Positions 3,945-34,207 of a DNA stretch of 64,000 nucleotides are shown here, in pieces (the first letter of the stretch is position 1; each line of letters starts with the position of its first letter). Origin of the DNA: an uncultured Gammaproteobacteria bacterium (lineage in GTDB: Bacteria; Cyanobacteriota; Vampirovibrionia; LMEP-6097); contig CAZFCF010000003.1 of NCBI GenBank assembly GCA_964517685.1, forward strand, positions 47,706-111,705. The letters are read 5' to 3'. Below the pieces are notes generated by a model. The model saw only the letters and a program-made list of their open reading frames with translations, searched no databases and was not told the DNA's origin. Position numbers and translations under genes: made by a program.

Positions 3945-4937
3945 ATGCATATAGTTATTTTTGGTATTGGCGCAATTGGAGGGTTCTACGGTATCACTCT
4001 TGCAAGGTATCTGAAAAACAATCCTAGAGAAGATTTCAAAATTAGTTTTATTGCTAGAGGGCAAACTTTTGAAAACTTAAAACATTTTGGAGCTAAATTA
4101 ATTTGTAAAAGAGACACTCTTGGTGAAATGCAAGAGTCTATTGTTGTAGAAAATAATTTTACTTTGGTAAAAAAATATCAAGAGTTAGAAATTAATCCAG
4201 ATGAATATACTTTGGTTTTGCTTTGTGTCAAATCCAAAGACACTATTGATGCTTGCAAAGATATAAAAACTAAACTTACTGATAATACTGCTGTGATCTC
4301 AGTGCAAAATGGAATTGAGAATGAAGAAAGAATTGCAGAAATTTTGGGAATCAAGCATGCAATTGGTTCTCTGACTACGATTGCTGCAGAAACTTTAGAG
4401 CCAGGGATCTATCTTCAGAAAGGTGGTTACGGATTTACTATTGGTGAATTGACAGAGAACATTGGTTATAAGTGGGCTGATAAAAAAAGAATAGATTATA
4501 TTTATAACTTTTTAAAAGAAGCCGGTTTGAGTATTTCACAAACTGAAAATATTAAAGAAGAGCTGTGGATTAAATTAGTTTGGAATGCAGCTTTTAATCC
4601 TATTAGTGTCCTGTATGAAAATACTGTTGGGCAACTACTTGCAGATCCTAAGAAAAAAGCACTTATTGAAGGAGTGATGTTTGAAGTTACTGAAGTGGCT
4701 GCCGCAGAAGGATATAAGTTGCCTGATGGTATAGAGCAGAAGCAAATTGGCAGGACTAGTAGTCCGATTTGGTATGACTTCAGAACTTCGATGTTACAAG
4801 ATTTTCAAAAAGGTAGAGAAATTGAGCTTGATGATTTATTGGGAGTCATTGTTCGCAAAGCCAAAGAGCATGATATCGATGTGCCAAATGCTGAAAAAGT
4901 TTTTAGTGAGCTTTCGGCCGTCATTGCGAGGAGTTAA
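3945..4937 (+). CDS. panE: 2-dehydropantoate 2-reductase (ketopantoate reductase, PanE/ApbA)
   Basis: N-terminal Rossmann motif MHIVIFGIGAIGGFYG. About 330 aa, with KPR-like central and C-terminal regions. The last residues (SAVIARS-stop) are encoded by the MITE at 4917-5019. Confidence 0.65.
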   Translation: MHIVIFGIGAIGGFYGITLARYLKNNPREDFKISFIARGQTFENLKHFGAKLICKRDTLGEMQESIVVENNFTLVKKYQELEINPDEYTLVLLCVKSKDTIDACKDIKTKLTDNTAVISVQNGIENEERIAEILGIKHAIGSLTTIAAETLEPGIYLQKGGYGFTIGELTENIGYKWADKKRIDYIYNFLKEAGLSISQTENIKEELWIKLVWNAAFNPISVLYENTVGQLLADPKKKALIEGVMFEVTEVAAAEGYKLPDGIEQKQIGRTSSPIWYDFRTSMLQDFQKGREIELDDLLGVIVRKAKEHDIDVPNAEKVFSELSAVIARS

Positions 4938-5019
4938 AAGCGACGAAGCAATCCAGTTTGCGCAGGGGGATTGCTTCGCTGGCCGTCACTGCGAGCGAAG
5001 CGCGGCAGTCGCAATGACG
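4917..5019. mobile_element. RPE-like palindromic MITE (family A), full-length copy
   Basis: gccgtcattgcgaggag...cgacgaagcaatcc...ggggattgcttcgct...cgcaatgacg. Terminal inverted repeat gtcattgcga/tcgcaatgac plus an internal inverted repeat gaagcaatcc/ggattgcttc. Family recurs at least 10 times in the window. Confidence 0.8.
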
Positions 5020-6603
5020 ATGTATACTAATAATGTGATTCCCAGGCTGCTTATACTTTTTGTTTTGTCCTTTTTGCTAAATACCACAGCATTTGCTGCG
5101 GTGCCAGAGGCTATAAAAACAGAACTTACAAAGATTTATCCTGAAGCTAAATTCAGATTTGATGATTTAATGCAAGTTAAAGATCGTTTGTGGCTAGTAT
5201 TTATACCTAAAGCTAAAGTTCAATATCCAGAGCCGCCTATTAACCTAGTTCTCAAAACAGAGAATGAAGATTTTCTGTTTAGTAATGGCTGGATTTATAC
5301 GCCTATAAAAGATCATACAATTAAAAGTTTAGATTTTTATCCAGAGGTTATACAAAAACAATTTATATTAGATCAAGTTTCTCAAACTTTTCTTATCCCA
5401 AAGAAATTTACTTTGCCACGTGATTTAGCAATGACAATTGGTAGATTGCCTTTAGAGTTATCTAATGTTGAGTTAGCTACAGATAGAGAACTTTTGTTTA
5501 AACAAAGACTTGAAGCTGATAAACAAAAGGTCATGAATTTTGCAGTTTTCTCTAATAAAACTCATAGTCTTGATTTATTAGAATTTAATGACCAAGCCTT
5601 CCTTAAGCATGGAACTCAATCAGCAAATGGTTCTAGCATAGATGAAATAAAAACCAAATATCTTATAAAAGAAAAATTTACTTTTATTTCAAAAATAAAA
5701 AAATATAAGAATGATATCTATTTCTCAGATTTTCATAAAAGTAAAATCTATAAACTAATACAACCTAAACAAATAATGCCGGATGCAACTAAGCCTTTTG
5801 AGAAGTTTGAGGATAAGAAGGAATATGGTTTAGAAGAGTATTTAGATCTCAAAAATTTTGAGATTAAGGCATCTTTAGTGGATTTTGCTTTTAGTAATGA
5901 TGATTCTGTATTTTATGTACTCACAGGATCTCCAAGTCAATTATTGGTTTTTAGCACTAGAACCAAAAAATTAATGAAGGATATGAAAATCCCGGCAGCC
6001 AGTGATGAGCTTACAGTCTTGTCGCGTAATGCTTCTGAACCTGATAAAGTTTTTTTTAGATCGAGATCTGCAAATAAAGTTTTTGTATTAAACTCTTTTG
6101 ACTACAGCATTTCAAGTGAAATTGATTTGAATAAACTTGATAGTAAGTTTCTTTTTATCCCACACTCTTTTGCGATTTATCCAGATCAAATACTTTTAGG
6201 ATGTGAGGCAATTAGTAAGAGCTACAAAGATGGTTTAAAAAGTGGCGGTAAAATTTTGGTCCTTGATGTAATCACTGGTGGCTTAAATAAAATTATCGAT
6301 TTGGATTTTACTCCTTATAAGTTACTCAAGAACGATGATAAAACCGCTTATATAGTTGGTTATAGTCCTGATACTTATTATTCTAAATTAGCAAAATTAG
6401 ATACTCAAAGTTATGAATTAAAGGTGAATGATTTAGGAGCAGATTTCCCTGCGGTTAAATCTTTGGTTATTAGCAATACTGGAGATTTTATTTTGGTACC
6501 AAGCTCTCAAACCCAATTACTGGGAATAATTGATACTGCTAGTTTTTCTTTAGTCAAGAAATTAAGCATTGAAAAGCCAATCAACCTGATTATTGATTTG
6601 TAA
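5014..6603 (+). CDS. secreted hypothetical protein (signal peptide MTMYTNNVIPRLLILFVLSFLLNTTAFAA)
   Basis: Long ORF. The track start at 4747 reads through panE's 3' end and the MITE. The first plausible starts are the two ATGs at 5014/5020, the first lying inside the MITE terminal repeat. A hydrophobic signal peptide follows. No recognisable domains. Confidence 0.5.
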   Translation: MTMYTNNVIPRLLILFVLSFLLNTTAFAAVPEAIKTELTKIYPEAKFRFDDLMQVKDRLWLVFIPKAKVQYPEPPINLVLKTENEDFLFSNGWIYTPIKDHTIKSLDFYPEVIQKQFILDQVSQTFLIPKKFTLPRDLAMTIGRLPLELSNVELATDRELLFKQRLEADKQKVMNFAVFSNKTHSLDLLEFNDQAFLKHGTQSANGSSIDEIKTKYLIKEKFTFISKIKKYKNDIYFSDFHKSKIYKLIQPKQIMPDATKPFEKFEDKKEYGLEEYLDLKNFEIKASLVDFAFSNDDSVFYVLTGSPSQLLVFSTRTKKLMKDMKIPAASDELTVLSRNASEPDKVFFRSRSANKVFVLNSFDYSISSEIDLNKLDSKFLFIPHSFAIYPDQILLGCEAISKSYKDGLKSGGKILVLDVITGGLNKIIDLDFTPYKLLKNDDKTAYIVGYSPDTYYSKLAKLDTQSYELKVNDLGADFPAVKSLVISNTGDFILVPSSQTQLLGIIDTASFSLVKKLSIEKPINLIIDL

Positions 6604-11749: not shown

Positions 11750-12535
11750 TTAAGTAATTAAAAGTAATTCAGAACCGCTAACTAAGTCATCAATAAAATT
11801 TTTTGCTTGTTCAAATTTTGCTTTACCTAAATCACGAATTTTTTTAGCTTCAATCTCAAAACGACTTTTTCTCTTCTTTAGCCATAGCGGAAAATCTTCA
11901 TGCTCTAAAGCTCTAATCATACTTTCTAAAGTCTCTGCTTCAATAGTGAAATCATATTCAACCATAAATCTAAGAGCGCGAGTGAGTCGAGTTGGATCAT
12001 CGATAAAACTTTCTGTATGAAAAGCGCGAATGAGTTTTTTCTCTATATCGCTAATTCCACCAATATGGTCTATGATCTCACCAAAGCTTTTAGGCATCAG
12101 TGATTCAAGTAGGGCATTAATTGTAAAATCTCGGCGTACTAAATCTGCACTAACATCATGAATGATAGTAACTTCTGGGAAAGCTGCGGGCTCAGGATAG
12201 ATCTCTGTTCGGGTACTGGCAATTTCAATCATGCTTGCAGGATATTCTGGATGTTGAATTTTGATAGTACCGAAGCATTTAAACTCTTCGACTATATCGA
12301 AAGTTACATGATTTGGATCATTGTCCTCAAGGTACTTTTGGAATTTATAAATAAATTCAATGGCATCGGTGTTAATAACTAAATCTATATCTTGATTTTG
12401 ATTGAAATTTAATCCGTTTAATTCAGCGTAGATTTTATTGCGTAGATAGCCGCCGACTATATATAATTCATGACCCAATTGCGCTGCCGCCGCGCCAATG
12501 TCTTGAAGAAAGGGATGAATCGTAGCAAAACTCAT
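11750..12535 (-). CDS. tRNA nucleotidyltransferase / poly(A) polymerase family protein (head domain)
   Basis: N-terminus HPFLQDIGAAAAQLGHELYIVGGYLRNKI...DIDLV resembles the PolyA_pol head domain (GGxVRD, DxD). At 261 aa it is shorter than classical CCA enzymes. Confidence 0.45.
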   Translation of the reverse strand: MSFATIHPFLQDIGAAAAQLGHELYIVGGYLRNKIYAELNGLNFNQNQDIDLVINTDAIEFIYKFQKYLEDNDPNHVTFDIVEEFKCFGTIKIQHPEYPASMIEIASTRTEIYPEPAAFPEVTIIHDVSADLVRRDFTINALLESLMPKSFGEIIDHIGGISDIEKKLIRAFHTESFIDDPTRLTRALRFMVEYDFTIEAETLESMIRALEHEDFPLWLKKRKSRFEIEAKKIRDLGKAKFEQAKNFIDDLVSGSELLLIT

Positions 12536-12550
12536 TAAGACCTAAGTCTA

Positions 12551-13885
12551 TTACAAAGTTTCAATAATTTCAAAAAACTCAGGAAACGAAGTATTTACAA
12601 ACTCAGTTTGTAAGATTTCAATAGCTTTAGTTGAATGTAAGGCTGCAATTGCACTACTCATGGCTAATCTATGATCTCCATGTGAATCGATTACAGTATA
12701 GTCTTTGATCGGTTCAAAGGGTTTGCCTGCGCGACCTTCAATGATCATGCCATCTTCTGTTTCTTCAACAGTGACACCAAGATGCTTAAGCATATTAATA
12801 GTAGTTGCAATACGATTGGATTCTTTTACCTTTAATTCAGCTGCATCTTTAATGATGGTAGTTCCTTGAGCCTGTGCCGCCAGGATTGAAATCACCGGAA
12901 TCTCATCAATCAATCTTGGAATTAAATCACCCTCTATAGTAGTGGCTTGAGCTTCTGAATGATAAACAATGATATCTGCAATAGCTTCGTGATTAATTTT
13001 TCTTTTATTAGTAAGTTTGAATTTCACTTTCATGGCTTTTAATACATCAAGAATTCCAGTTCTAGTGGGATTGATGCCGACATTGATTAAATTCAGTTCT
13101 GCTCCCGGTAATATTGCTCCAGCAACTAAGAAGAATGCAGCGCTAGAAATATCACCTGGCACTTCTATTTTTTGTCCTTGAAGTTTAGTAATTGATTTTA
13201 ATCCGTTTAAGCTAGTTCTAAGTCCATCAATTTTAAGATCAGCTCCAAAGCTTCGCATCATTAATTCAGTATGATCGCGAGATTTTTCTGGCTCACTTAC
13301 ACTGGTTACGCCATCAGCATTTAAACCAGCAAGTAAAATACAAGATTTAACTTGAGCGGAAGCAATCTTGGAAACATAATCAATTGCCTTTAATTTTTTT
13401 GCGGTTCCGTCTGGATTGATAATTAAAGGTGCTTTATTGGCACGGCTTTTAATTATTGCGCCCATTTCAGCAAGAGGATCAATTACTCTGCCCATTGGTC
13501 TTCCAGAAAGTGATTCATCTCCAATTAATGTGGTTGTGAAAGGTAGTCCAGCAAAGAGTCCTGTGAGTAAACGCATTCCTGTTCCAGAATTACCTAGGTA
13601 TATGGCTTTACTTGGTTCTTTGAGATTTGCAAAACCGTTGCCGTGAATTTTAACTTCACGCTCGGCTTCATTGAATTCGATTTCAACGCCTAAGGCTTTA
13701 AATGCATTCATTGTACAAATACAATCTTCACCAGTAAGGAAATGTTCGACTTCTGTTAAACCATTTGCGATTGATCCAAAAATAATAGAACGATGAGAAA
13801 TGGATTTATCGCCAGGAATTTTAATTTCTTTTTTTCCAGCTTTTTTTAACTGGGAAATTACTTTCTTTTGCATTTCTTTTTGCAT
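12551..13885 (-). CDS. aroA: 3-phosphoshikimate 1-carboxyvinyltransferase (EPSP synthase, AroA)
   Basis: KIPGDKSISHRSIIFGSIANG, and later LGNSGTGMRLLTG and RPM..V motifs. 444 aa. Confidence 0.85.
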   Translation of the reverse strand: MQKEMQKKVISQLKKAGKKEIKIPGDKSISHRSIIFGSIANGLTEVEHFLTGEDCICTMNAFKALGVEIEFNEAEREVKIHGNGFANLKEPSKAIYLGNSGTGMRLLTGLFAGLPFTTTLIGDESLSGRPMGRVIDPLAEMGAIIKSRANKAPLIINPDGTAKKLKAIDYVSKIASAQVKSCILLAGLNADGVTSVSEPEKSRDHTELMMRSFGADLKIDGLRTSLNGLKSITKLQGQKIEVPGDISSAAFFLVAGAILPGAELNLINVGINPTRTGILDVLKAMKVKFKLTNKRKINHEAIADIIVYHSEAQATTIEGDLIPRLIDEIPVISILAAQAQGTTIIKDAAELKVKESNRIATTINMLKHLGVTVEETEDGMIIEGRAGKPFEPIKDYTVIDSHGDHRLAMSSAIAALHSTKAIEILQTEFVNTSFPEFFEIIETL

Positions 13886-13893
13886 CTTTGTAA

Positions 13894-15249
13894 TTATAAT
13901 TTCATCGCCAGTAAATCTTTTGCACTAATGATTTTGCCATAAAGTGCAGAAGCTGCAACTGTTGCCGGGCTTGCTAAATGCGCTCTAGAACCGGCTCCCA
14001 TGCGACCAGGGAAATTTCTATTAGTGCTAGAAATACAACGATTCTTAGGTGCAACTACACCCATACTCATTCCTAAACAAGGACCACAGCTAGCGTGAGT
14101 CCAAAGCGCTCCAGCATCTTGGAAAATATCATGTAAGCCTTCACGTTCAGCTTGTCTTTTTACTTCTTGAGATCCTGGAGTAATGATAGTAGGAATTTTT
14201 ACTTTATGACCTTTGAGAATATCAGCTGCAATTCTCAAATCAGAAATTCTTGAATTTGTGCAACTGCCAATGAAAGCTTGGTCAAGTTCTAAGTCTTCAA
14301 CTTTATCACCTGGCTTTAGTCCAGTATATTCAAGCGCTTTAGCATCAGCATCAGCAGGAATAACTCCATGAGTTGAAACTGCCTCACCAGGATTGATTCC
14401 CCAAGTTACCATCGGCTCAAGTTTGCTGATATCAAGCTCTACTTCTGCATCGTATTTTGCATCAGGATCAGCTTTGTATTTAGACCATTTAGCTTTTAGT
14501 GCATCAAACTCTTTAGAGTCTTTAGGAATTTGTTCTCTATCGCGTAGATATTCAAAAGTTACTTCATCCGCTTCGATCATGCCACTTGTAGCACCAGCTT
14601 CAATAGCCATGTTACAAATGGTCATTCTCTCTTCCATTGATAAGTCTTTAATGCCATCACCAGTGTATTCCAGTACAAAGCCAGTACCACCTTTAAAAGT
14701 TATTTTACTGATGATTGCAAGAATAATGTCTTTAGCATAAACACCTTCTTGTCTTTTGCCAGTGACATTGATTTTCATTACTTTAGGTTTTTTAAGTAAA
14801 AGACACTGAGATAACATTGCACCAGCGTTTGCAGTAGTACCGATACCCAGTGCAAAACAAGCGAAGGCGCCGTTAGTACAAGTATGTGAATCACCACAAC
14901 AAAGAGTCATTCCTGGTTGTACATAACCTTTCTCAGGAGCGATCACATGGCAAATACCATTTTCACCAATATCAAAGTGTCTTATACCGTGTTTCTTAGC
15001 CCATTTACGTAAAACATCAGCTTGAATTGCAGTAGCTGTATCTTTTGCAGGAGCTACGTGATCATTAATAGCTAAAATTCTTTTGGCATCGAAAATTCTT
15101 CCACCAAATTCTTCATCAATTTGGATAGCGCCTTGAGGAGTAGTAATTTCATGGGCAACAATTTTATCCATGAAAACTAAATAGTTATCGCCGGGTAGTT
15201 TCTCAACTACATGTTCGTCCCAAACTTTCTCAAATAGAGTCTTACTCAT
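13894..15249 (-). CDS. leuC: 3-isopropylmalate dehydratase large subunit (LeuC; aconitase family)
   Basis: Collinear with E. coli LeuC: MSKTLFEKVWDEHVV, GMTLCCGDSHTCTNGAF, LSMEERMTICNMAIEAGA, FIGSCTNSRISDLR, CGPCLGM, STNRNFPGRMG. No leuD is adjacent. Confidence 0.8.
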   Translation of the reverse strand: MSKTLFEKVWDEHVVEKLPGDNYLVFMDKIVAHEITTPQGAIQIDEEFGGRIFDAKRILAINDHVAPAKDTATAIQADVLRKWAKKHGIRHFDIGENGICHVIAPEKGYVQPGMTLCCGDSHTCTNGAFACFALGIGTTANAGAMLSQCLLLKKPKVMKINVTGKRQEGVYAKDIILAIISKITFKGGTGFVLEYTGDGIKDLSMEERMTICNMAIEAGATSGMIEADEVTFEYLRDREQIPKDSKEFDALKAKWSKYKADPDAKYDAEVELDISKLEPMVTWGINPGEAVSTHGVIPADADAKALEYTGLKPGDKVEDLELDQAFIGSCTNSRISDLRIAADILKGHKVKIPTIITPGSQEVKRQAEREGLHDIFQDAGALWTHASCGPCLGMSMGVVAPKNRCISSTNRNFPGRMGAGSRAHLASPATVAASALYGKIISAKDLLAMKL

Positions 15250-15281
15250 ATACTGCCAATCTTAGCAAATTAGAGTAAGTG

Positions 15282-15386
15282 CCGTCATTGCGAGCCACGA
15301 AGTGGCGTGGCAATCCAGTCAGCGCACGGGGATTGCTTCGTCAGGCTTTGCCTTCCTCGCAATGACACGCTACGCTCGCAATGACG
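15282..15386. mobile_element. RPE-like MITE (family A) copy, intergenic with duplicated right end
   Basis: ccgtcattgcgagccacgaagtggcgtggcaatcc...ggggattgcttcgtcagg...cctcgcaatgacacgctacgctcgcaatgacgg. Confidence 0.75.
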
Positions 15387-15412
15387 GTATTTATTTTCGA
15401 ATAATAAAAAAT

Positions 15413-16915
15413 CTATTTAGCTTGCACTATCAAATTAATTTTCAAAATCTGCGCTGCAACTTCATTGGCGATTTTAAAAGCAGATATTTTTACTTCAGTT
15501 GGATCTATAACTCCAGCTTCTTCTAAATCAAGTAATTCACCATTATCAAGATCAATACCCTTAGTATTTTGCGGGCTAAGGCTAAGTTTAGTAATCAATT
15601 CACTGAATTCAAATCCTGCATTAGTAACTATTTGTTTGAATAGTGCTGCAAGTGATTCAATAACCACATCAAAGCCGGCAGAGATTTCAGTGTCGTTTTT
15701 GAATTCTTGTTTTGATTCTTGTAAATTTTTAATTAGATTAAGCTCGGCAATACCTTCACCCATTAAGTAACCTGACTTCAGGGTTGCGATCATGGCTTGA
15801 ATGGCATCTTTAGTAATGCGCTTACGTTCCTCAAGGATAGTTTCAGTTTCAGCATTAATAATGATAGTGGCTTGATATTGCTTACTGCCAATTAAGCTAA
15901 AACCAGCGAGCTCGGGATAGTAAGTAATTTTTTCTAAGCTACCAGAATAATCTTTGAGATTTTGCTCTGAGCTTAATAAGTTTGCTCTAGTAGTTAATTG
16001 TGAGCCGCTTGCTTGAATTAAATTATCGATATCAGATTTTTTTAGATGAGTTAAAACAAAAATTCCTGACTTCACAAAAAATTCTTCAATAGTTGGAAAC
16101 ATCGAGGCACTAGTGAAAACTGCTTTAATACCCGATTTAGAAATTTTCTTAGCAGAGTCTAGCAGCGTTTGAATATTGTTTTCAAATCTTTTGACACCTT
16201 CATCAGTGCTTATAGCCTCGCTGGACATTGGTTCTGGCTCAAAAGGCCCTTCGATAATTAGGCAGCTTAGCTCATTGAAACTTTGTGAGTAATTAAAATG
16301 AGTTTTCTTTTTGATAAATAAGCCATCTAGAACTCGTGATTCTGAGAGGCTTGTAGCAACAACTGCTTCTGCAAGATCGTAACTATCATTAATGAGAATA
16401 TTTGTTTTATTCTTGTCGATAATTTTTTTAGCAGCATCAATGATTAATTCCGTGATGATTTGATTTTCTCTTGCGGCAATAGAAACTACTTGTTTGAGTT
16501 TTTCATCATTTATATCTTTGATGGGTTTAGAACTTTTTCTAAATTCATTAATTAACTTTTCTGAAGCTATTTGAATACCTTTGACCAAGCGTGAAGTTTT
16601 TGCACCATTATTAATTTTGTTTTGGGCGCTACTTAGAAGGGCGTCAATTAGAATCGCTGTACTAGTAGTACCATCACCAACTTGAGCTTCTTGAGATTTA
16701 AGTGCTTCATTAACCAGCCTAGAAATCGGATGGAGAATTTTTAGATTGCTAAGAATTTCGACGCCATCATTAGTGCAAGTAGTGTGACCAAATTCATCAA
16801 CTAACATTACATCAAGTCCTTTTGGACCTACAGTGCCTTTTACAGTGGCCACAAGGGATGCTACCGCATTAATATTGGAATTGAGAATGTCTGAGTATTT
16901 TTGGTTGTCTAGCAT
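15413..16915 (-). CDS. group II chaperonin (thermosome/CCT-like Cpn60, TCP-1 family)
   Basis: VGPKGLDVMLVDEFGHTTCTNDGVEILSNLKILHPISRLVNEALKSQEAQVGDGTTSTAILIDALL aligns residue by residue with the archaeal thermosome ([28 protein letters not shown]...VGDGTTTAVVLAGELL). 500 aa, no GGM tail. Confidence 0.75.
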   Translation of the reverse strand: MLDNQKYSDILNSNINAVASLVATVKGTVGPKGLDVMLVDEFGHTTCTNDGVEILSNLKILHPISRLVNEALKSQEAQVGDGTTSTAILIDALLSSAQNKINNGAKTSRLVKGIQIASEKLINEFRKSSKPIKDINDEKLKQVVSIAARENQIITELIIDAAKKIIDKNKTNILINDSYDLAEAVVATSLSESRVLDGLFIKKKTHFNYSQSFNELSCLIIEGPFEPEPMSSEAISTDEGVKRFENNIQTLLDSAKKISKSGIKAVFTSASMFPTIEEFFVKSGIFVLTHLKKSDIDNLIQASGSQLTTRANLLSSEQNLKDYSGSLEKITYYPELAGFSLIGSKQYQATIIINAETETILEERKRITKDAIQAMIATLKSGYLMGEGIAELNLIKNLQESKQEFKNDTEISAGFDVVIESLAALFKQIVTNAGFEFSELITKLSLSPQNTKGIDLDNGELLDLEEAGVIDPTEVKISAFKIANEVAAQILKINLIVQAK

Positions 16916-17009
16916 TAGCTTATAAATATTTTATCTTAGTGCTAATTGCTTTATTAACCGGAGCTTAACTATTAGATGTTACTTAAGTTCCAAGCAAAGG
17001 AAACCGACC

Positions 17010-17483
17010 ATGTCAGACACACAATTTTTTACGTCACAAATCTCTTCTCTTAATGTAGATCAAGCTGCAACACAGCAAAAGTTAGGAGAGGCACAAAGAG
17101 ATGCTTCGTTAGGTGGAGATGATTCTGCATTGAGCGAAGTGGCTAATCTTCAAGGACAAGTTTCTCAAATCAGAAGTGAAATTGCTTCTGCTAAATCAGA
17201 ATTAGAAAAAGTTGAAGTTAAAAATGCTCAACAAGAAATGCAAGAAGTTCAAGCTGAAGAAAGAAAAAGAGTTGATGAAGAAACTAAAGCTAGAGAGAAA
17301 GAGCAAGAAGATTTAAAATTTTTAGAAACAATTGAGCATCCTGCTAAGGATCAGCCAGCACAAGGCGCTGTAGCTACAGCAATTAAACCGGGTACAGCAG
17401 CTGGACAAGCAAATACAGCAGCTCAAACTGAAGAGAAGCCTGAAATAAAGGCTACAAAAAATTCTTCAGGACCTAGTACATAA
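17010..17483 (+). CDS. hypothetical coiled-coil protein (Gln/Glu/Ala-rich, 157 aa)
   Basis: ORF with low-complexity coiled-coil composition, followed by a clean intrinsic terminator. Confidence 0.4.
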   Translation: MSDTQFFTSQISSLNVDQAATQQKLGEAQRDASLGGDDSALSEVANLQGQVSQIRSEIASAKSELEKVEVKNAQQEMQEVQAEERKRVDEETKAREKEQEDLKFLETIEHPAKDQPAQGAVATAIKPGTAAGQANTAAQTEEKPEIKATKNSSGPST

Positions 17484-17510
17484 CGATTCTCCCTCCCTCC
17501 CAAAAAAAAT

Positions 17511-17545
17511 AAAAGAGCTTCCGCAAGGAGGCTCTTTTATTTTGT
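17511..17545 (+). terminator. rho-independent terminator
   Basis: aaaagagcttccgcaaggaggctcttttatttt: a 9-bp GC stem with a gcaa loop, followed by a T-tract. Confidence 0.7.
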
Positions 17546-17598
17546 AATTTAACAGCGACTTAACTTCCATTTGCTATAAAGTCAGGGGATTATCTAAC

Positions 17599-17853
17599 TT
17601 GATTAATAAAATTGGAAATTTTAATATTAAAGATCTGAAGCAGAAAGGCTTTCAGGTAGCGGATTCAGAGAATAATGAATCTGGCATAAAAAGTTTTAAA
17701 CAAGAAAAAAGTGATTTTGAAACATCAGAATCTTTGAAAGAAACTATTGGTCTTTTAAAAAATAGCATTGGACAAAATCGTAACGATGATCGTGTTCAAT
17801 ACGATATGTCTAACTTGAATAATCAAGATGATAGTGATTTGAAATTTTTATAA
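17599..17853 (+). CDS. hypothetical small protein (84 aa)
   Basis: ORF only; acidic, Asn/Asp-rich. Confidence 0.25.
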   Translation: MINKIGNFNIKDLKQKGFQVADSENNESGIKSFKQEKSDFETSESLKETIGLLKNSIGQNRNDDRVQYDMSNLNNQDDSDLKFL

Positions 17854-17913
17854 CGTTCGTCATCCTGAGCCCTGAAAGGGCGTGAGGATCTAGTCCTTAA
17901 TGGTTCTTTATAA

Positions 17914-18036
17914 CTGGAGAAAATTTTTCATACACTCTTTCACTCCCTATTGCTTGACGCCCCTCCCAGCTCCGCCGCTCGGAGGCGACGCAAACAGGGC
18001 GACCCTTAGTTCAAGAGTGTATTAAAAATTTTCTAG
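17914..18036. repeat. MITE-like element (family C): 24-bp inverted repeats flanking a GC-rich core
   Basis: ctggagaaaatttttcatacactctt (17914-17939) is the reverse complement of aagagtgtattaaaaattttctag (18013-18036). Between them lies a 72-bp GC-rich core with a ctccg..cggag hairpin. Directly preceded by a short family-A-like hairpin, tcgtcatcctgagccctgaaagggcgtgaggatc (17864-17896). Confidence 0.6.
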
Positions 18037-18118
18037 AACACAGTCTAAGAATTCCTAAACTTAAACTTACTGAACCACTTTAACCGGAAGATAAACAAGA
18101 TCCTATATAAAAGAACTA

Positions 18119-19126
18119 ATGGTACTTGGTGGTCAAACAAGTGGATTTAGTGCAGCTCCTTACGTTAGCCCGAATGCTAACTTTCCGACTAGTAATGGTC
18201 CAAAGAGCGCTGACACAAAGCCCGCAATTAATAGAGTAAGCCCTGCTGATGTGAGCAAGGTTGCGACGCAGAAGCCTGGAGCTAAGGCAGATCAGTTTGT
18301 AGATATAGCAGATAAGGCTACACAAAATCATGAAGATGCTAAAAGAGTTCATGATGATCTGAAGAAAGACAAAGCCCTTCAAGCAGATACTTTTAAGAGT
18401 AGAATTGAAGTTGGTAAATCTAGAAGTGAAGTTTTATTACAACAAGTTGCAGTTAAGCAATTAAACGATAAAGAATTTAAAAAACAACAAGCAGAGAATT
18501 TTGCTAAAAATCTTAGTGAAAGCCAGCTGAAAGGTAAAGCTAATCAAGGAGCAGTTCAGCAAGAACCACTCTCTGCTGATAAAGATCAAAATCTTGCAAG
18601 TAATGTAGTTCAATCGCAAATTGAAACTTTAGATCCTGATGCTAAAGCAAGAAAAAAACTTGATGATAAATTACAGAAAATTTACAATAGTGGTAGTGAA
18701 AAAGGAAAACATTTCGTTTCATTTGTCTCAAGAGAAATGACCAAAGGTCCTCTGCCAAAGAGTATTCTTGAGTTAGTTGATGGTTTTCTTGAAACTCTTA
18801 AGCCGCAAGGCAGTCAAACTCCATCACAGATGATTGCATCTGGTAATGAACCAATTTCAACTCTTAAAAGTATGGTTTCTGCTACTGATCTTGAAGAATT
18901 AGGGCAGATCCAAAATAGTTTAGCTAATTCGGTTGTTGCTTCTGCAGGAGAAAAAACAGATCTTCTTGCAATTAGAAATTTACTTAAAGTTGAGGTTAGG
19001 CAAGCACCTCCTCCAGCATTAGTCTCAAATTTTAATGATAGAGATAATTTAAAAACTGCTGCTGATTTTGTTATATCAATTAATCGTGGTGTTGCTAATA
19101 CGCCTTGGGATGCCATAGCTGCATAA
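18119..19126 (+). CDS. hypothetical protein (335 aa, Lys/Gln/Ala-rich)
   Basis: ORF only; no recognisable motif. Confidence 0.4.
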   Translation: MVLGGQTSGFSAAPYVSPNANFPTSNGPKSADTKPAINRVSPADVSKVATQKPGAKADQFVDIADKATQNHEDAKRVHDDLKKDKALQADTFKSRIEVGKSRSEVLLQQVAVKQLNDKEFKKQQAENFAKNLSESQLKGKANQGAVQQEPLSADKDQNLASNVVQSQIETLDPDAKARKKLDDKLQKIYNSGSEKGKHFVSFVSREMTKGPLPKSILELVDGFLETLKPQGSQTPSQMIASGNEPISTLKSMVSATDLEELGQIQNSLANSVVASAGEKTDLLAIRNLLKVEVRQAPPPALVSNFNDRDNLKTAADFVISINRGVANTPWDAIAA

Positions 19127-19157
19127 GAGGGTTGAGATACGCAACCCCTGTAGTAAG

Positions 19158-19847
19158 ATGAGATTAGTGCACTCTCAAATTCCATCAGAAGAACCAAAAA
19201 AAACTAAAGCAGAACTTAAAGCTGAGCTTGATCTAATGATGGCAAAGGCTGCTATTAAACATGCAGTAGTTACTTTTGCAAAAGGAATGATGCTGGAGCA
19301 ACCTCCAGTTGAATTAAAAGCTTATTGGGACAGTCTGGATACAGAAGGCTGGCAAAAACACTTACAAATTTTTAGTGTTGAGTTAAAAAAAATGAAAAAT
19401 GTTGCTATCAAAAAAATTCTTTTTGATATTGAACACTATATAAAAGATTGTAAGAAATTAGTACCTGGATTTAGAAGAACTAAAGAAGAATTATTGCTAA
19501 TGGTTGCTATTGGGCAATTTGAGGTTAAAGAATTTCTAGGTAACTTATCGACTGTTGCAACTAATCGCGAACGCTTGGATAGAAAAATTCATAAACAAAT
19601 TAAAGAACTAACTTGGGAAGATGATAGAGCTTTAGAGCGCTTGGATGAACTGACCAAAAAACTTGAAGAACCGAAAATTAAAAAAGATGATATCGAGAAA
19701 ATTGAAACTGAAATCAAAGAGATAGAAAGCAATATTACTATTCGTAAACAAAAAAGAGATGAGCTTGCAATTAAGCTAGTTGAATGGAAGGCTAGAGGAA
19801 ATATCGATATTGCAGGGCAGGATGGTTCGTTTAGGTTAGACGCATAA
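19158..19847 (+). CDS. hypothetical coiled-coil protein (229 aa)
   Basis: ORF only; charged heptad-rich C-terminus. Confidence 0.4.
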   Translation: MRLVHSQIPSEEPKKTKAELKAELDLMMAKAAIKHAVVTFAKGMMLEQPPVELKAYWDSLDTEGWQKHLQIFSVELKKMKNVAIKKILFDIEHYIKDCKKLVPGFRRTKEELLLMVAIGQFEVKEFLGNLSTVATNRERLDRKIHKQIKELTWEDDRALERLDELTKKLEEPKIKKDDIEKIETEIKEIESNITIRKQKRDELAIKLVEWKARGNIDIAGQDGSFRLDA

Positions 19848-19864: not shown

Positions 19865-19899
19865 TCAGGGGGATTGCTTCGCTACGCTCGCAATGACGG
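19865..19899. mobile_element. RPE-like MITE half-element forming the 3' end of the ADH gene
   Basis: cagggggattgcttcgctacgctcgcaatgacggc. Read on the minus strand it encodes the last residues VIASVAKQSP and the stop of the 19865-20902 CDS. Confidence 0.7.
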
Positions 19900-20902
19900 C
19901 TTTTAAAATTTTCCCTTCAATCATTTCTTGCAAAGCAATTTCCAAATCTTCTAATTTAAATTCTGCTGTAATTAAATCACTTATATCAATTGTGCTATTT
20001 GCAAGTAATTCAAGAGCTTGCTGAATATATTGTGGACGATGATGAAAAGTACCAATCATTCTGATCTCTTGATAATGAATTTGATAAGTGTCAAATACAA
20101 CTTTTGAATCTTTTTTACAACCACCAAAGAAATTTATTAAACCACCAGGTCTCACCATCTTCATGCAATCTAACCAAGCTTCAGGTTTGCCCACGGCTTC
20201 AAAAACCACATCAGCACCAAAGCCATTGATGGCTTTTATTTTATTTGTGAATTCTGGATCTTTGTAATCAAAAATAAAATCAGCACCATTGGCTTTAGCA
20301 AGTTTTGTTTTCAATGCAGAATTGCCAATCGCAATTATAGTGATATTCTTGCGTAACTTTCTACAAAGCTTAATAAAAGTTAAACCGATAGCACCAATGC
20401 CATAGACGCAAACCATGTCATTGTCTTTGATTCCTGATTTCTCAAAGCCATGTAAAGTTACTGCTAAAGTCTGCACAACGGCTGCAGTTTTAAAATCAAG
20501 TGATTCAGGAATTTTGTATAAGTTATTTTCTACAATGCTTTCAGGAATTTTTATTAGTTCGGCAAATGAGCCATTGAGAAATTCTAGATTTTCACAAAGT
20601 TCAAATTCTTCTTTGCGGCAAAAAAAACATTTATAACAAGGAGCAGTATTTGCGGCGGTAACTTTATCTCCGATAGTGAATTTTGGATTTTTAGTTTCTT
20701 TAACTATTCCTGAAAATTCATAACCGAAACTTGAGGGAATGCTTTTGATTAATTTAGGATGACCCTGAAGGTAAGTTTTAGTATCAGTACCTCCAGTTAG
20801 TGCAGCTTTTATTTCCACCAAAACCTCACCCTTACTTATGTTAGGGTCTTGAATATTTTCAATCCTTAAATCTTTTGGTCCGTAGAATAATATAGCTTTC
20901 AT
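19865..20902 (-). CDS. zinc-dependent alcohol dehydrogenase / medium-chain dehydrogenase-reductase (threonine/sorbitol dehydrogenase-like)
   Basis: MKAILFYGPKDLRIENIQDPNISKGEVLVEIKAALTGGTD...; structural-zinc Cys cluster CYKCFFCRKEEFELC; GxGxxG-like VYGIGAIGL. The C-terminal 10 aa are MITE-derived. Confidence 0.7.
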   Translation of the reverse strand: MKAILFYGPKDLRIENIQDPNISKGEVLVEIKAALTGGTDTKTYLQGHPKLIKSIPSSFGYEFSGIVKETKNPKFTIGDKVTAANTAPCYKCFFCRKEEFELCENLEFLNGSFAELIKIPESIVENNLYKIPESLDFKTAAVVQTLAVTLHGFEKSGIKDNDMVCVYGIGAIGLTFIKLCRKLRKNITIIAIGNSALKTKLAKANGADFIFDYKDPEFTNKIKAINGFGADVVFEAVGKPEAWLDCMKMVRPGGLINFFGGCKKDSKVVFDTYQIHYQEIRMIGTFHHRPQYIQQALELLANSTIDISDLITAEFKLEDLEIALQEMIEGKILKAVIASVAKQSP

Positions 20903-20985: not shown

Positions 20986-23133
20986 ATGCTCGAAAAAAAA
21001 CTAAAAACATTTTTACTCTTAGCAGTACTAGGCTTTTTGCCTTTATCACTGCCATTTTGCCTACCTTGTTCTGCAAAAATTGATCTGGACGAAGAATTTT
21101 TTAATAGATACTCAGCAGCTATTAATGAAGAGAAAATAGGCAATACTCTTTCTGCTGTTAAAAGTTACCAACAAGCTTTAAAAATTCAACCACGTGATTA
21201 TGATGCGCTTTTAAAATTAGGACTACTTTATCTAAACAATGGTGCTGAAGGAGCAATTAGGCAAGAAGGCATTAAGCTGTCTCTTGATTATTTTAAAAAA
21301 GCCGAATCAGTTAAACAAAATGATGCTCTTTTATATCTGCTAATGGGAAGAGCTTATGAAGAGATTGGTGAAATTGATAATGCGGTAATCTCTTTTACTA
21401 AAGCTTCAAACCTTGATCCAGAGAATATTTTATTAAAATCAAATTTAGGTAGATTATATTTTGAGAAAAAAGATTTTAAAAATTCAATTGAAATTTTCAA
21501 CAAAGTAATTCTTGCTTATCCGGATAATCTAAAAGCCCGAGGTTATTTAGGAGCTTCACTTCAATCTACTGATAATTATTTAGCTGCAATCGAGCAGTAC
21601 AACTACATCCTAGACTATACGCCAAATGAATATAGCATTCTAAAAAACATTGGTGATTCATGGCTTGCTGTTGGTAAATTTGATAAAGCGAAAGAAAGCT
21701 ATGAGAAAGCTAAGAATGTAGATCCAAACGTTCCTAATATATATGCTGATCTTGCCTATGTATCAAGACAAGAGCAGGATTACAAATCTGCAATTGAGAA
21801 CTACAAAAAAGCTTTGCAACTAAAAGGTACTAATGAAGATTGGAAAAAATCTCTAGCTTATTCTTATTGGTTTGCTGATCAGAAAAAAGAAGCAGTGCAA
21901 GTTTTTACTGAAGTTAAAAACTATGCTGTAGCAGGATATATTCAACAAACTTTAGGTGATACTAATGGTGCAATTGAAAGCTACAAAAAAGCTCTAGAAC
22001 TTAATCCTAAGGACATCAAGAGTAGATTTAATCTTGCAAGAATTTATCACGAATCTAAACAACTTGATTTAGCTCAAGCTGAATATGAAAAAGTTCTTCA
22101 ACAAAAACCAAATGATGTTGAGTCAATATTTTTACTTGCAACTTTAAGACAAGAAGAAGGTGATCTTGATATCGCTATGAATTATTACAATGAGCTTCTA
22201 ACACAGCATTTGGCTACTACTGATGCAACTAAGCTCGATGATACTTCTAAGCTTATTAAGAACAATGTTAATTACAATCTAGGTTTGGCTTATAAGTCAC
22301 AACAAAAACTAGATAAAGCTGAACAGAATTTTGAAGAATTAGTGAAAGATGGAGCTACTAAAGATTTAGCTTTTGAGAAAGGTAAGAATGTCTACAAAGA
22401 ACTTAGCTTTATCAAAATTGCTTTAGGAAAAAACATTGAAGCTGAAAGAACAATCAATGACTGGCTTAGAGAAGATCCAACCAGTGTGGAAGCAAGAAAT
22501 CTTTATGCTGACTTCTTAGTTCATCTTGATAAAGAGCGTAAAGCTGTTGAGCAATTGCGTTTAGCATCAGCATTAGACAAGACTTCTACAACTAGATTGA
22601 AGCTTGCCAACTTATTGCATTCACAAAACAATCTTTATGAGGCTCTTGCTGAGTACCAAGTAGTGCTGCAAGAAGATCCTAGTAATTTAAATGCGCTATT
22701 GGGTGCAGCTAATAATTTCAAAGCTCTTGGTTTTAAGCAAGAGGCTGTCAATATTTATAAAGATGCTCTGAAAAGATATCCTAATGATGTTTTGACAAAC
22801 TATAACTATGGTCTCTTGATGCATGAAGACAATAATCTTGGTTTAGCGCGCGAGCAGTATGAGAAAGTTTTGGCATTGAATCCTAACTTTACTCAAACCT
22901 ACTACGTATTAGGTTTAGTATATTGGGATACTGATCAAAAAGATAAGGCTAAAGAAGTTTGGTCTAAATTCTTAGGCAGCTCTGCTGATGAAGGTTTAAA
23001 ACAACAAATCAGAAATATTGTTGACACTGGAATTAAAACTGACCAAGCTTTAAAACAACAAGGTATTGATCCAACGCCACTTGAAGCAACTAAGGCGCAG
23101 AGTATGGGTGCTGAGCAACCAAGTAAGACTTAG
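20986..23133 (+). CDS. secreted tetratricopeptide-repeat (TPR) protein (715 aa)
   Basis: Signal peptide, then many 34-aa repeats with the W/LG-Y-A-F-A-P TPR consensus (AYEEIGEIDNAVISFTKASNLDPEN, and so on). Confidence 0.7.
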   Translation: MLEKKLKTFLLLAVLGFLPLSLPFCLPCSAKIDLDEEFFNRYSAAINEEKIGNTLSAVKSYQQALKIQPRDYDALLKLGLLYLNNGAEGAIRQEGIKLSLDYFKKAESVKQNDALLYLLMGRAYEEIGEIDNAVISFTKASNLDPENILLKSNLGRLYFEKKDFKNSIEIFNKVILAYPDNLKARGYLGASLQSTDNYLAAIEQYNYILDYTPNEYSILKNIGDSWLAVGKFDKAKESYEKAKNVDPNVPNIYADLAYVSRQEQDYKSAIENYKKALQLKGTNEDWKKSLAYSYWFADQKKEAVQVFTEVKNYAVAGYIQQTLGDTNGAIESYKKALELNPKDIKSRFNLARIYHESKQLDLAQAEYEKVLQQKPNDVESIFLLATLRQEEGDLDIAMNYYNELLTQHLATTDATKLDDTSKLIKNNVNYNLGLAYKSQQKLDKAEQNFEELVKDGATKDLAFEKGKNVYKELSFIKIALGKNIEAERTINDWLREDPTSVEARNLYADFLVHLDKERKAVEQLRLASALDKTSTTRLKLANLLHSQNNLYEALAEYQVVLQEDPSNLNALLGAANNFKALGFKQEAVNIYKDALKRYPNDVLTNYNYGLLMHEDNNLGLAREQYEKVLALNPNFTQTYYVLGLVYWDTDQKDKAKEVWSKFLGSSADEGLKQQIRNIVDTGIKTDQALKQQGIDPTPLEATKAQSMGAEQPSKT

Positions 23134-23143
23134 TTTAATAGCG

Positions 23144-23231
23144 GCGTCATTGCGAGGAACGTAGTGACGAAGCAATCCCCCTGCGCAAATCAGATTGCCA
23201 CGTCGGGCTTTGCCCTCCTCGCAATGACGAG
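23144..23231. mobile_element. RPE-like MITE (family A) copy, intergenic
   Basis: gcgtcattgcgaggaacgtagtgacgaagcaatccccctgcgcaaatcagattgccacgtcgggctttgccctcctcgcaatgacg. Confidence 0.75.
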
Positions 23232-23279
23232 CGGTACGCAACCCATCTCAGGTGGTATGATTTTACTTGAAATTTCAGA

Positions 23280-33912: not shown

Positions 33913-34207
33913 CGTAATATAGATTATATTTTGAAAATTAATCTTCTTTAATTCCATGGGTGGAACTTTTTCTAAAACTTTTCAATGGTTGATACAAAAG
34001 GAATTTCACACAATATGATATACGTCTTACTCATTCATACAAAAATCTTAATTTTAAAAACTTAGCTAAAACAGTTGACCGCCTACCTAAAATTTGAAAG
34101 TATTAATGCTGTATTCTAATACGCTGGGTCTTAGTCCCTTGACCAATAGTGTTAGGAAATTTTTTATGGAAAAAAATAGGGTGAAAAAAACAAACAAAGG
34201 AGAAACA

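Follow-up and report, generated by a model that had tools for sequence, protein, structure and literature searches.

A bacterial chaperonin gene outside the dnaK operon that very probably encodes a divergent Group III subunit

Which kind of chaperonin does a bacterium encode when the gene looks archaeal, and how did the gene come to be there? We examine this question for a gene at positions 15413..16915 (minus strand) of a 64,000-nucleotide stretch of bacterial DNA (hereafter, the window). A sequence-only reading had assigned its product to Group II, the thermosome/CCT type, and had implied sporadic horizontal transfer as its source. Group III is the other candidate: bacterial chaperonins of this group were reportedly described in 2010 and 2017, and, to our knowledge, the group is known from a single crystal structure, a resurrected ancestor and a few papers. 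Its origin is disputed, with one view seeing a relic of an ancestral chaperonin and the other an ancient transfer in which Firmicutes received the gene from an archaeon. A literature search on thermosome, chaperonin or GroEL in Melainabacteria, the lineage to which the host belongs, returned no relevant work.

The gene is genuine and intact, and it encodes a lid-bearing chaperonin of archaeal-looking type. The reading frame lies exactly where it had been placed, starts with ATG and encodes 500 aa, and residues 23-500 are spanned by the Pfam Cpn60_TCP1 family (PF00118; 291 bits, E 1.9e-86). The AlphaFold model (pLDDT 91.7, pTM 0.87) has the three-domain Cpn60/TCP-1 fold, and searches of the PDB likewise return Cpn60/TCP-1 subunits of Group III type. 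Faster divergence than that of LeuC, AroA and TyrRS, together with a Glu at the central position of the GGG motif, might point to a decaying or catalytically inactive paralog under relaxed constraint. However, dN/dS against a 92%-identical relative (L001) is 0.08, an intact ORF of the same length occurs in ~50 relatives, the fold is predicted with confidence, and, throughout the chaperonin's clade, D50, D81, T83, T84, R149, D370 and D471 are invariant or almost so. A side chain is evidently tolerated at the middle GGG position, as Ala stands there in 29 of 101 Group II sequences. We therefore regard decay as very improbable.

To place the protein, we compared the window's own clade (M, n = 50) with Group III (n = 34), Group II (n = 101), a urease-operon clade that we call clade X (n = 11) and GroEL (n = 3), using group profiles built without members of clade M. 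The Group III profile scores highest, at 421 bits, followed by those of Group II (287), clade X (240) and Group I (139). Among solved structures, the best sequence matches are 9RWQ (311 bits) and 5X9U (235 bits), with thermosomes and CCT at 157 bits or less. Foldseek ranks 5X9V (E 6e-37) and 5X9U (E 3.5e-33) at the top for the model, with TM scores of 0.83-0.85, and Group II structures follow at 6e-29 or weaker. The NCBIfam thermosome models do align end to end, but they score below their curated cut-offs (224 vs 450, 217 vs 400 and 215 vs 671 bits); the CCT models reach 108-160 bits against cut-offs of 456-800, and the GroEL models align only as two separate pieces, scoring 147-159 bits where their cut-offs are 352-582.

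The phylogeny that had been proposed as a check was run as distance-based neighbor-joining trees of 205-207 sequences under five trimming and distance settings, and it speaks against the earlier assignment. Clade M is recovered with 97-99% bootstrap support on a long branch, M and Group III group together at 78-88%, and Group II forms a clade without the window protein at 95-100%; the mean distance between M and Group III is 1.60, compared with 1.86 between Groups III and II. E. coli GroEL served as outgroup and probe, and E. coli GroES as probe; the GroEL sequence matches the database GroELs P0076 and P0086 at 644-654 bits, and the outcome of the trees is unchanged when it is left out. Three loci labelled as Chlamydia trachomatis MAGs (L004-L006), considered as distant relatives, turned out to carry ordinary GroELs, 49% identical to that of E. 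coli.

The details of the nucleotide pocket sharpen this placement. The equatorial motifs named by the sequence-only reading are all present on the minus strand: GPKG (residues 30-33, 16817-16828), TNDG (residues 48-51, 16763-16774) and the phosphate-binding GDGTT (residues 80-84, 16664..16678), to which we add IDP (15500-15508). Their columns are conserved in 47-50 of the 50 clade members (42 of 50 for the Pro of IDP), and they are conserved across Groups I-III as well. The segment at the position of the Group II nucleotide-sensing loop is more discriminating. It is 12 residues long in every member of M (50/50) and Group III (34/34) and in Group I, as opposed to 18 in 93 of 101 Group II sequences, and the window protein has neither the 6-residue insertion nor its conserved Lys. 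GroEL, too, has the short form, which therefore rules out Group II but is not enough on its own to join the clade to Group III. R149 (16469..16471, minus strand) aligns with Arg155 of the Group III prototype Ch-CPN, which contacts the gamma-phosphate; all 50 clade members and 33 of 34 Group III sequences have R at this position, whereas Group II has T, S or A and GroEL has N. D370 (15806..15808, minus strand) corresponds to D373 of Ch-CPN, the catalytic Asp of the intermediate domain, and is D in 50/50 and 34/34, respectively.

One pocket residue departs from the general pattern. Residues 386-388 (15752..15760, minus strand) align with the GGG motif but read G-E-G. The middle residue is E in 36 of 50 clade members. 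Elsewhere it is G (32 of 34 Group III, 3/3 GroEL and 11/11 clade X sequences) or, in Group II, either G or A, so that in this alignment the change is specific to the clade.

The built-in lid, or helical protrusion, occupies residues 222-262 (16130..16252, minus strand; beginning EGPFEPEPMSSEAISTDEGVKRF) by alignment and model. All 50 clade members and 32 of 34 Group III sequences have 41 residues here; in Group II the segment has 45, and in GroEL only 21. The model folds it into two helices (232-235 and 238-260). Within the clade it is the best-conserved segment (55% mean identity), and the apical domain is the part most divergent from Group III (21%). Four lid-tip residues, Leu237, Phe243, Tyr246 and Phe253, are reported to be strictly conserved in Group III, with Ch-CPN as the reference (PMC5635000). 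The clade has I/V, V, F/Y and L at these positions, all still hydrophobic, and the tip is not strictly conserved in our Group III sample either, where F243 is found in 25 of 34 sequences.

Sequence, fold, profile, tree and indel comparisons thus all favor Group III over the thermosome/CCT type. We consider it very likely that the protein is a member of the Group III branch rather than a true archaeal Group II chaperonin, though the bootstrap of 78-88% for M and Group III is not decisive, and, with similar confidence, that its clade is a divergent Group III sub-family which, among named sequences, occurs only in non-photosynthetic Cyanobacteriota. The long branch of clade M, the location of the gene outside the dnaK operon, the altered lid tip, the GEG motif and the rapid divergence of the chaperonin count against this reading. 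The earlier view that the protein is not a GroEL was well founded. A highly divergent GroEL, an assembly chimera or archaeal contamination could be argued from the partial GroEL model matches of 147-159 bits; yet those matches come in two pieces, the Group I profile gives only 139 bits, the lid is a 20-residue insertion relative to GroEL, the identical gene and neighbors are found in ENA, NCBI and Logan assemblies, and the flanking genes are bacterial and melainabacterial. We give this account a vanishingly small probability, in keeping with the earlier judgment that contamination was unlikely.

The host belongs to the Melainabacteria/Vampirovibrionia, probably to the order Caenarcaniphilales, judging from the closest named LeuC matches (84-85% and 71-72% identity), all of which belong to Candidatus Caenarcaniphilales or Candidatus Melainabacteria; the named relatives of the chaperonin are from Caenarcaniphilales or Cyanobacteriota. 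The window also encodes MotA, FlgN, FliG, three flagellins and KdsB, in agreement with the flagellated diderm that had been described. The gene order around the chaperonin recurs in independent assemblies (L007, L002, L003, L010, L012-L014) with chaperonins down to 43% identity, albeit with an insertion between leuC and aroA in L010, and a synteny block of ~17 kb is common to genomes whose chaperonins are 43-56% identical. In ~20 further cases, a chaperonin relative and a LeuC relative agree in the length of their longest contig.

The composition of the gene was also checked, as had been suggested, and it is no outlier: GC, GC3 and codon usage lie within 0.7 sd of the window's genes, so recent horizontal transfer was discarded as an explanation. 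Taken together, the ~17-kb synteny, the ordinary codon usage and the dN/dS of 0.08 point to a gene that has long been inherited vertically and kept under selection. Recent acquisition of a genuine Group II thermosome gene from an archaeon would account for the full-length alignment of the thermosome models and for the matching equatorial motifs. It would not account for scores far under the thermosome cut-offs, for Group II ranking behind Group III in both sequence and structure, for the missing sensing-loop insertion and Lys, for a lid 4 residues shorter, for exclusion from the Group II clade at 95-100%, or for native composition and synteny kept across deeply diverged relatives. We find such an acquisition highly improbable.

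The position of the gene is informative in what surrounds it and in what does not. As had been noted, leuC lies downstream and a cluster of hypothetical genes upstream. On the same strand as the chaperonin are leuC (13894-15249, minus strand; Pfam Aconitase family, 482 bits), aroA (12551-13885, minus strand; Pfam) and a CCA/poly(A)-polymerase-family gene (11750-12535, minus strand; Pfam), with gaps of 8 and 15 bp within this run (11750..15249), and the chaperonin stop overlaps the leuC start in L014. From co-direction, gaps and conserved order, chaperonin-leuC-aroA-cca probably forms a co-transcription unit. Upstream and divergent are four hypothetical genes (157, 84, 335 and 229 aa; 17010..19847, plus strand) whose products have no significant Pfam or PDB relatives. 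The chaperonin gene also lies between such genes and leuC in L002, L003, L007, L010, L012 and L014; positional homologs in L010, L012 and L014 are 63-65% identical for the 229-aa protein and 33-40% for the 335-aa protein. The hypothetical genes are missing beside the chaperonin in L020, and this, with their lack of Pfam and PDB relatives, means that no argument for a functional link to the chaperonin can be made.

A conserved region of the form TTAA-N6-GTTAA (16928..16968, minus strand) precedes the gene and overlaps a sigma-70-like promoter match, TTAATA-18-TAAAAT, at 16957..16928; its TTAA and GTTAA columns are invariant across six syntenic loci. Even when up to 3 mismatches are allowed, the whole 64-kb window contains no CIRCE element. 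Control by HrcA through CIRCE was considered for an 8/9 match to the left half-site (TTAGCACT) just upstream of the start and set aside, as there is no full element and relatives do not keep the half-site. The conserved promoter, the absence of CIRCE and the probable co-transcription with leuC, aroA and cca suggest expression of a housekeeping type rather than an HrcA-controlled heat-shock response.

The spacer between the chaperonin and leuC holds a palindromic dispersed repeat (15276..15393) with inverted arms at 15276-15295 and 15374-15393. Matches to the arms number 15 in the window against 0.77 expected, at least four full copies align, and the RNA hairpin has a predicted energy of -57.3 kcal/mol (z -4.0). 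The "MITE" that had been noted at the 3' end of the gene is thus real as a dispersed palindromic repeat, for which MITE-like or REP-like is the safer term. Relatives lack the repeat in this spacer, which there ranges from -4 to 138 bp.

The window chaperonin lies outside any hrcA-grpE-dnaK-dnaJ operon, the setting in which all but one of the Group III genes have been reported, as an association and not as a definition of the group (PMC5635000). The chaperonin genes of L020 and of the sister lineages P0266 and P0283 are likewise outside dnaK operons; as controls, the ~30%-identical homologs P0048, P0055 and P0056 sit in hrcA-cpn-grpE-dnaK-dnaJ. A search of the 64-kb window by tblastn, and of its other ORFs of at least 150 aa with Pfam and NCBIfam, found no GroES and no second Cpn60-family gene, in line with the earlier statement that groES and groEL are absent from it; none of the fetched melainabacterial loci contains GroEL or GroES.

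How, then, might the protein work? In all likelihood the gene encodes a functional Group III chaperonin subunit. By homology with the Carboxydothermus prototype, the subunits would assemble into a double ring with eight per ring. ATP would bind in the equatorial pocket formed by GPKG, TNDG, GDGTT and IDP, where R149 is predicted to contact the gamma-phosphate and D370 and D50 to act in hydrolysis. The two-helix lid would close the folding chamber in place of GroES, with closure presumably driven by ATP, and we infer a role as an accessory chaperonin beside GroEL. At 43-56% identity, compared with 64-88% for its housekeeping neighbors LeuC, AroA and TyrRS, the chaperonin diverges faster than they do, which is unlike an essential general chaperonin.

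Instead of belonging inside Group III, clade M could be a separate lineage, sister to Group III, with its own lid chemistry and restricted clients such as LeuC or the four hypothetical proteins. The clade is tight and long-branched (97-99% support), its distance to Group III is 1.60 beside 1.86 for III-II, and support for canonical Group III without M is only 21%. Further points in this direction are a lid that is the best-conserved segment (55%) beside an apical domain most divergent from Group III (21%), the clade-specific GEG motif, and the nearly universal adjacency to leuC, whose product is an aconitase-family Fe-S enzyme, with the stop/start overlap in L014; the thermosome-like clade X chaperonin inside a urease operon offers a precedent for a client-linked role. 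Against it, the chaperonin (44% identity) is kept in L020 and L021, where the neighboring 4.7-8 kb contain no leuC and none of the hypothetical genes, and the clade has in common with Group III the derived Arg and a lid of exactly equal length. As the whole 17-kb block is syntenic, the adjacency to leuC tells little that is specific. We judge a separate lineage to be distinctly unlikely.

Membership of Group III, our preferred placement, would give that group a mesophilic clade in non-photosynthetic Cyanobacteriota that is well supported and has been passed on vertically. This clade retains the structural hallmarks of Group III outside the dnaK operon and so weakens the generalization that ties Group III function to DnaK/DnaJ. 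Its natural variants (F to V or L in the lid, GGG to GEG) are useful for probing lid and nucleotide-pocket function, and as a taxon sample it could sharpen the debate on the origin of Group III. No new kind of machine is revealed by the window chaperonin. A bolder proposal would nonetheless make the Caenarcaniphilales clade a fourth kind of lid-bearing chaperonin: uncoupled from the DnaK operon, with its own lid surface and GEG pocket, expressed constitutively, and either serving a dedicated client, such as LeuC, to which it would be translationally coupled, or the lineage-specific proteins encoded next door, or taking over part of the work of GroEL. We hold this to be speculative and rather unlikely; if it were true, deep vertical presence in a second Terrabacteria phylum would argue that Group III predates a single archaeon-to-Firmicute transfer.

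Among known chaperonins, GroEL is the most remote. It shares the superfamily, the GDGTT/GGG/IDP pocket and the short segment at the sensing-loop position with the window protein but is lidless (21 vs 41 residues) and needs GroES, and its alignments are partial and low-scoring. The Group II structures (1A6D, 1Q3R, 3KFB and 6QB8) have in common with it the three-domain fold, a built-in lid, independence of GroES and the equatorial ATP motifs. They differ in a sensing loop 6 residues longer with its Lys, a lid 4 residues longer with a beta-strand, and a length of ~545 aa; against the thermosome models the window protein attains about half of the required score, and in the trees it lies outside Group II. 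Clade X, of which P0060 in L025/L026 is an example, is similarly divergent, lid-bearing and outside both canonical Group II and heat-shock operons; unlike the window's clade, it branches beside Group II, has a loop insertion of intermediate length (3 residues) and sits between ureC and ureE. An et al. 2017 mention non-canonical archaeal chaperonins, to which clade X probably corresponds.

The top sequence match of known structure is the ancestral ACIII (9RWQ; Severino et al. 2025, PMC12696368), which forms eight-fold double rings and groups with Group III in our tree; its sequence is inferred and consensus-like, which inflates scores such as its 311 bits. The PDB gives the molecule in 9RWQ the name "ACII", and PMC12696368 assigns the entry to ACIII. 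Ch-CPN (5X9U open, 5X9V closed; PMC5635000) is the best natural match in sequence and fold, at ~30% identity and TM 0.83-0.85. This prototype is a homo-hexadecamer of two 8-membered rings that closes on ATP binding with little cooperativity (PMC5635000), and it has been characterized biochemically, whereas the window's clade is known from sequences and a model. The two also differ in host (a thermophilic Firmicute and a low-GC melainabacterium, respectively), in the location of the window gene outside the dnaK operon, and in the substitutions F243 to V and F253 to L at the lid tip and GGG to GEG in the pocket. What they share is the set of features by which we recognize the window protein: the absence of a nucleotide-sensing loop, the gamma-phosphate Arg, the catalytic Asp, a two-helix lid of the same length, and a chain of ~500-520 aa that ends without a C-terminal Gly-Met tail.

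The chaperonin gene is an ATG-initiated open reading frame (ORF) at 15413..16915 on the minus strand, exactly where the sequence-only reading had placed it. Its 500 aa make up a complete Cpn60/TCP-1 family protein (Pfam PF00118, residues 23-500, 291 bits), with the equatorial motifs that reading had picked out (GPKG at 30-33, TNDG at 48-51, GDGTT at 80-84). The NCBIfam thermosome models cover the whole protein (224, 217 and 215 bits), while the match to GroEL models breaks into two pieces (at most 159 bits); as all these scores lie far below the curated cut-offs, no curated NCBIfam model claims the protein. The window had been said to lack groES and groEL, and we agree: tblastn with the window protein and GroEL/GroES probes found no second chaperonin gene in the 64 kb, and dnaK, dnaJ, grpE, hrcA and groES are absent from the Pfam/NCBIfam annotation of those remaining ORFs that reach 150 aa. 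The gene content is clearly bacterial (MotA, FlgN, FliG, three flagellins, FabF, KdsB, 2-oxoacid:ferredoxin oxidoreductase).

The same reading had classed the protein as a Group II (thermosome/CCT-type) chaperonin, but PDB matches, fold, tree and profiles all point instead to Group III, the bacterial thermosome-like chaperonins. Among all PDB sequences, 9RWQ matches best (311 bits) and 5X9U second best (235 bits), versus only about 110-157 bits for genuine thermosomes and CCT subunits. 5X9U/5X9V comes from the bacterium Carboxydothermus hydrogenoformans and is its Group III chaperonin, Ch-CPN (PMC5635000); 9RWQ is, according to its paper, ACIII, a resurrected Group III ancestor (PMC12696368). 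In the PDB, 9RWQ carries the molecule name “Ancestral Group II Chaperonin (ACII)” rather than ACIII; its sequence falls with Group III in our tree. An AlphaFold model, computed from an input alignment of 39 sequences, is confident (pLDDT 91.7, pTM 0.87), and its top structural matches are 5X9V and 5X9U (E 6e-37 and 3.5e-33, TM 0.83-0.85), with every Group II structure ranking behind them (E 6e-29 or weaker).

Phylogeny, the check proposed with the Group II claim, upheld a thermosome-like, non-GroEL protein but not a position within Group II. Our distance-based neighbour-joining tree, rooted on GroEL, used 207 aligned sequences: the matches of two database searches, Ch-CPN, ACIII, two GroELs from the database and that of E. 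coli. The tree splits in two, with Group II and an unclassified thermosome-like clade (X) on one side and Group III and a 50-sequence clade holding the window chaperonin (M) on the other. Bootstrap values are 97-99% for M, 78-88% for M plus Group III and 95-100% for Group II across five combinations of trimming and distance correction, also when the artificial sequence and E. coli GroEL were left out. Canonical Group III without M is supported at only 21%, leaving M nested within Group III or sister to it. Profile HMMs built with M left out scored the window chaperonin at 421 bits for Group III, 287 for Group II, 240 for clade X and 139 for Group I (GroEL). We conclude that the gene is a Group III chaperonin, a divergent melainabacterial addition to a known kind.

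An et al. characterize Group III by an absent nucleotide-sensing loop, an arginine (Arg155) where Group II has a lysine, a lid of two helices that is shortened and hydrophobic at its tip, and location in a dnaK operon (PMC5635000). The sensing-loop segment has 12 residues in 50/50 M and 34/34 Group III sequences versus 18 in Group II; because GroEL shares the short state, this excludes Group II without proving Group III. The derived characters that M and Group III share are the arginine (R149 here, invariant in M) and the exact lid length, which is 41 residues in all 50 M and 32 of 34 Group III sequences versus 45 in Group II and 21 in GroEL. The lid is predicted as two helices in the AlphaFold model, and its four tip positions in M are V/I, V, Y/F and L, all hydrophobic, against the L, F, Y and F reported for Group III. 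Conservation is at or close to 100% for the catalytic Asp D370 and for D50, D81, T83, T84 and D471. The GGG nucleotide-pocket motif reads G-E-G in 36 of the 50 M sequences, including ours (residues 386-388, 15752-15760), versus GGG in GroEL, nearly all Group III and clade X, and G-G/A-G in Group II; as 29/101 Group II sequences carry Ala at the middle position, a side chain is tolerated there. The lid is better conserved within M than any other segment (55% mean identity), and M differs most from Group III in the apical domain (21%).

The chaperonin belongs to a conserved block of genes: histidine kinase, TyrRS, TPR protein, ADH and four hypothetical genes, then, divergently, chaperonin, leuC, aroA, a CCA-enzyme-family gene, DUF748 and hemW. 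This order is common to the window and loci L002, L003, L007, L012, L013 and L014, and to L010 with insertions, drawn from ENA, JGI, NCBI and Logan assemblies. About twenty more chaperonin/LeuC match pairs share an equal-sized longest contig, including contigs of 4.9 and 6.5 kb. The gene's GC (0.350), GC3 (0.259) and codon usage all differ by no more than 0.7 sd from those of the genes in the window, and its dN/dS is 0.08 against the 92%-identical chaperonin of L001. The horizontal transfer implied earlier is therefore not apparent as a recent event; native composition, synteny and dN/dS mean long vertical inheritance under purifying selection. Across the syntenic set, identity is only 43-56% for the chaperonin, versus 82-88% for LeuC, 64-77% for AroA, 66-74% for TyrRS and 55-61% for the TPR protein and ADH; the gene thus changes much faster than an essential general chaperonin would be expected to. 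Archaeal contamination, a divergent GroEL, pseudogenisation and a recent Group II transfer are each contradicted by several independent tests, and we regard family, fold, intact catalytic set, built-in lid and selection as established.

Close relatives of the adjacent LeuC are 79-90% identical to it; among its named matches, the nearest (84-85% and 71-72%) are all Candidatus Caenarcaniphilales or Candidatus Melainabacteria, and the named relatives of the chaperonin are Caenarcaniphilales or Cyanobacteriota. Given these relatives, the “uncultured Gammaproteobacteria” titles of L001-L003 look like mislabels; synteny and an 87%-identical LeuC link L002 and L003 to Caenarcaniphilales-like genomes, and for L001 there is the 92% identity of its chaperonin to ours. 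Titles also look unreliable for L004-L006, “Chlamydia trachomatis” MAGs with an ordinary GroEL only 49% identical to that of E. coli.

Homologs at ~30% identity (P0048, P0055 from Firmicutes/Bacillota, and P0056) lie in hrcA-cpn-grpE-dnaK-dnaJ, the published Group III arrangement (PMC5635000). A dnaK-operon location was found for none of the M members inspected, nor for the nearest outgroups, P0266 and P0283, and the window has no CIRCE. As had been read, the gene sits between leuC and hypothetical genes: downstream, in the same orientation, come leuC, aroA and the CCA-family gene, after successive gaps of 163, 8 and 15 bp, and in L014 the stop codon of the chaperonin gene overlaps the start of leuC. 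On the other side lie four lineage-specific ORFs (157, 84, 335 and 229 aa; 17010-19847, plus strand), which have no significant Pfam or PDB relatives and whose order beside the chaperonin is preserved in several genomes. Among these genomes the 229-aa protein shows 63-65% identity, exceeding the chaperonin's own conservation. The intergenic region between the chaperonin and 157-aa genes holds a TTAA-N6-GTTAA motif preceded by TA.CA..T (16954-16968, minus), invariant in six syntenic loci (window, L002, L003, L010, L012, L014) with chaperonins 43-56% identical. It overlaps a predicted sigma-70-like promoter, TTAATA-18-TAAAAT, upstream of the chaperonin gene and may be a -35 element and/or some regulator's operator.

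Clade X (P0058-P0065, P0299, P0300, P0314; 99% bootstrap, beside Group II) has a sensing-loop insertion of 3 residues, not 6. Its member P0060 (L025:8001-9557 and L026:8001-9557) lies inside a urease operon ordered urea transporter, ureA, ureB, ureC, chaperonin, hyp, ureE, ureF, ureG, ureD, a location that suggests a urease-dedicated chaperonin. With this precedent, the linkage to leuC, the long branch of M and the lid and GEG specific to M could mark a separate client-dedicated lineage instead of a Group III member; however, locus L020 keeps the chaperonin with neither leuC nor the hypothetical genes nearby, and we consider such a lineage improbable beside the Group III assignment.

The 163-bp chaperonin-leuC gap is accounted for by a palindromic repeat at 15276-15393, absent from this spacer in relatives. 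Described earlier as a MITE at the gene's 3' end, it is indeed a dispersed palindrome, but no transposase was found in the window. The family shows 15 arm matches in the window versus 0.77 expected and at least four full copies (4905-5035, 15276-15393, 23130-23245, 31000-31110), with single arms near 19887, 31694, 33208, 46246 and 49909; its sequence runs CGTCATTGCGAG ... GCAATCC ... GGATTGC ... CTCGCAATGACG, and its RNA hairpin reaches -57 kcal/mol (z -4.0). One arm (19865-19897) lies within the last codons of a zinc-ADH ORF (19865..20902, minus), whose C-terminus (...AVIASVAKQSP) is thus repeat-encoded, and a 74-aa ORF (15302..15526, plus; ...LAMTRYARNDG...) likewise reads through the repeat and is probably not a gene. 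In L010 (GCA_013565675.1, JACCDV011210003.1), a Y1 (IS200/RAYT-type) transposase gene splits the syntenic block between ADH and the hypothetical genes, and an FG-GAP protein and a HipA/HTH toxin-antitoxin pair separate leuC from aroA; judging by the contig number, the assembly would have >1 million contigs, possibly of a eukaryotic host or a large metagenome. Elsewhere in the window, a 1601-aa ORF without Pfam or NCBIfam match (34094-38899, plus) adjoins the three flagellin genes (38991-39938, 40758-41693, 41937-42887, minus); between the first two, a 203-aa ORF without annotation runs the other way.

By analogy with Ch-CPN and ACIII (PMC5635000, PMC12696368), the window chaperonin would form an 8+8 double ring with weak cooperativity, its lid closing the chamber upon ATP binding independently of GroES. 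Gene context suggests constitutive expression outside HrcA control, possibly co-transcribed with leuC-aroA-cca. What chiefly sets the gene apart is its departure from the dnaK operon, together with what it may contribute to discussion of where Group III came from. In all other bacteria carrying one, the Group III chaperonin works beside GroEL (PMC5220055), and by that comparison this one most likely does too.
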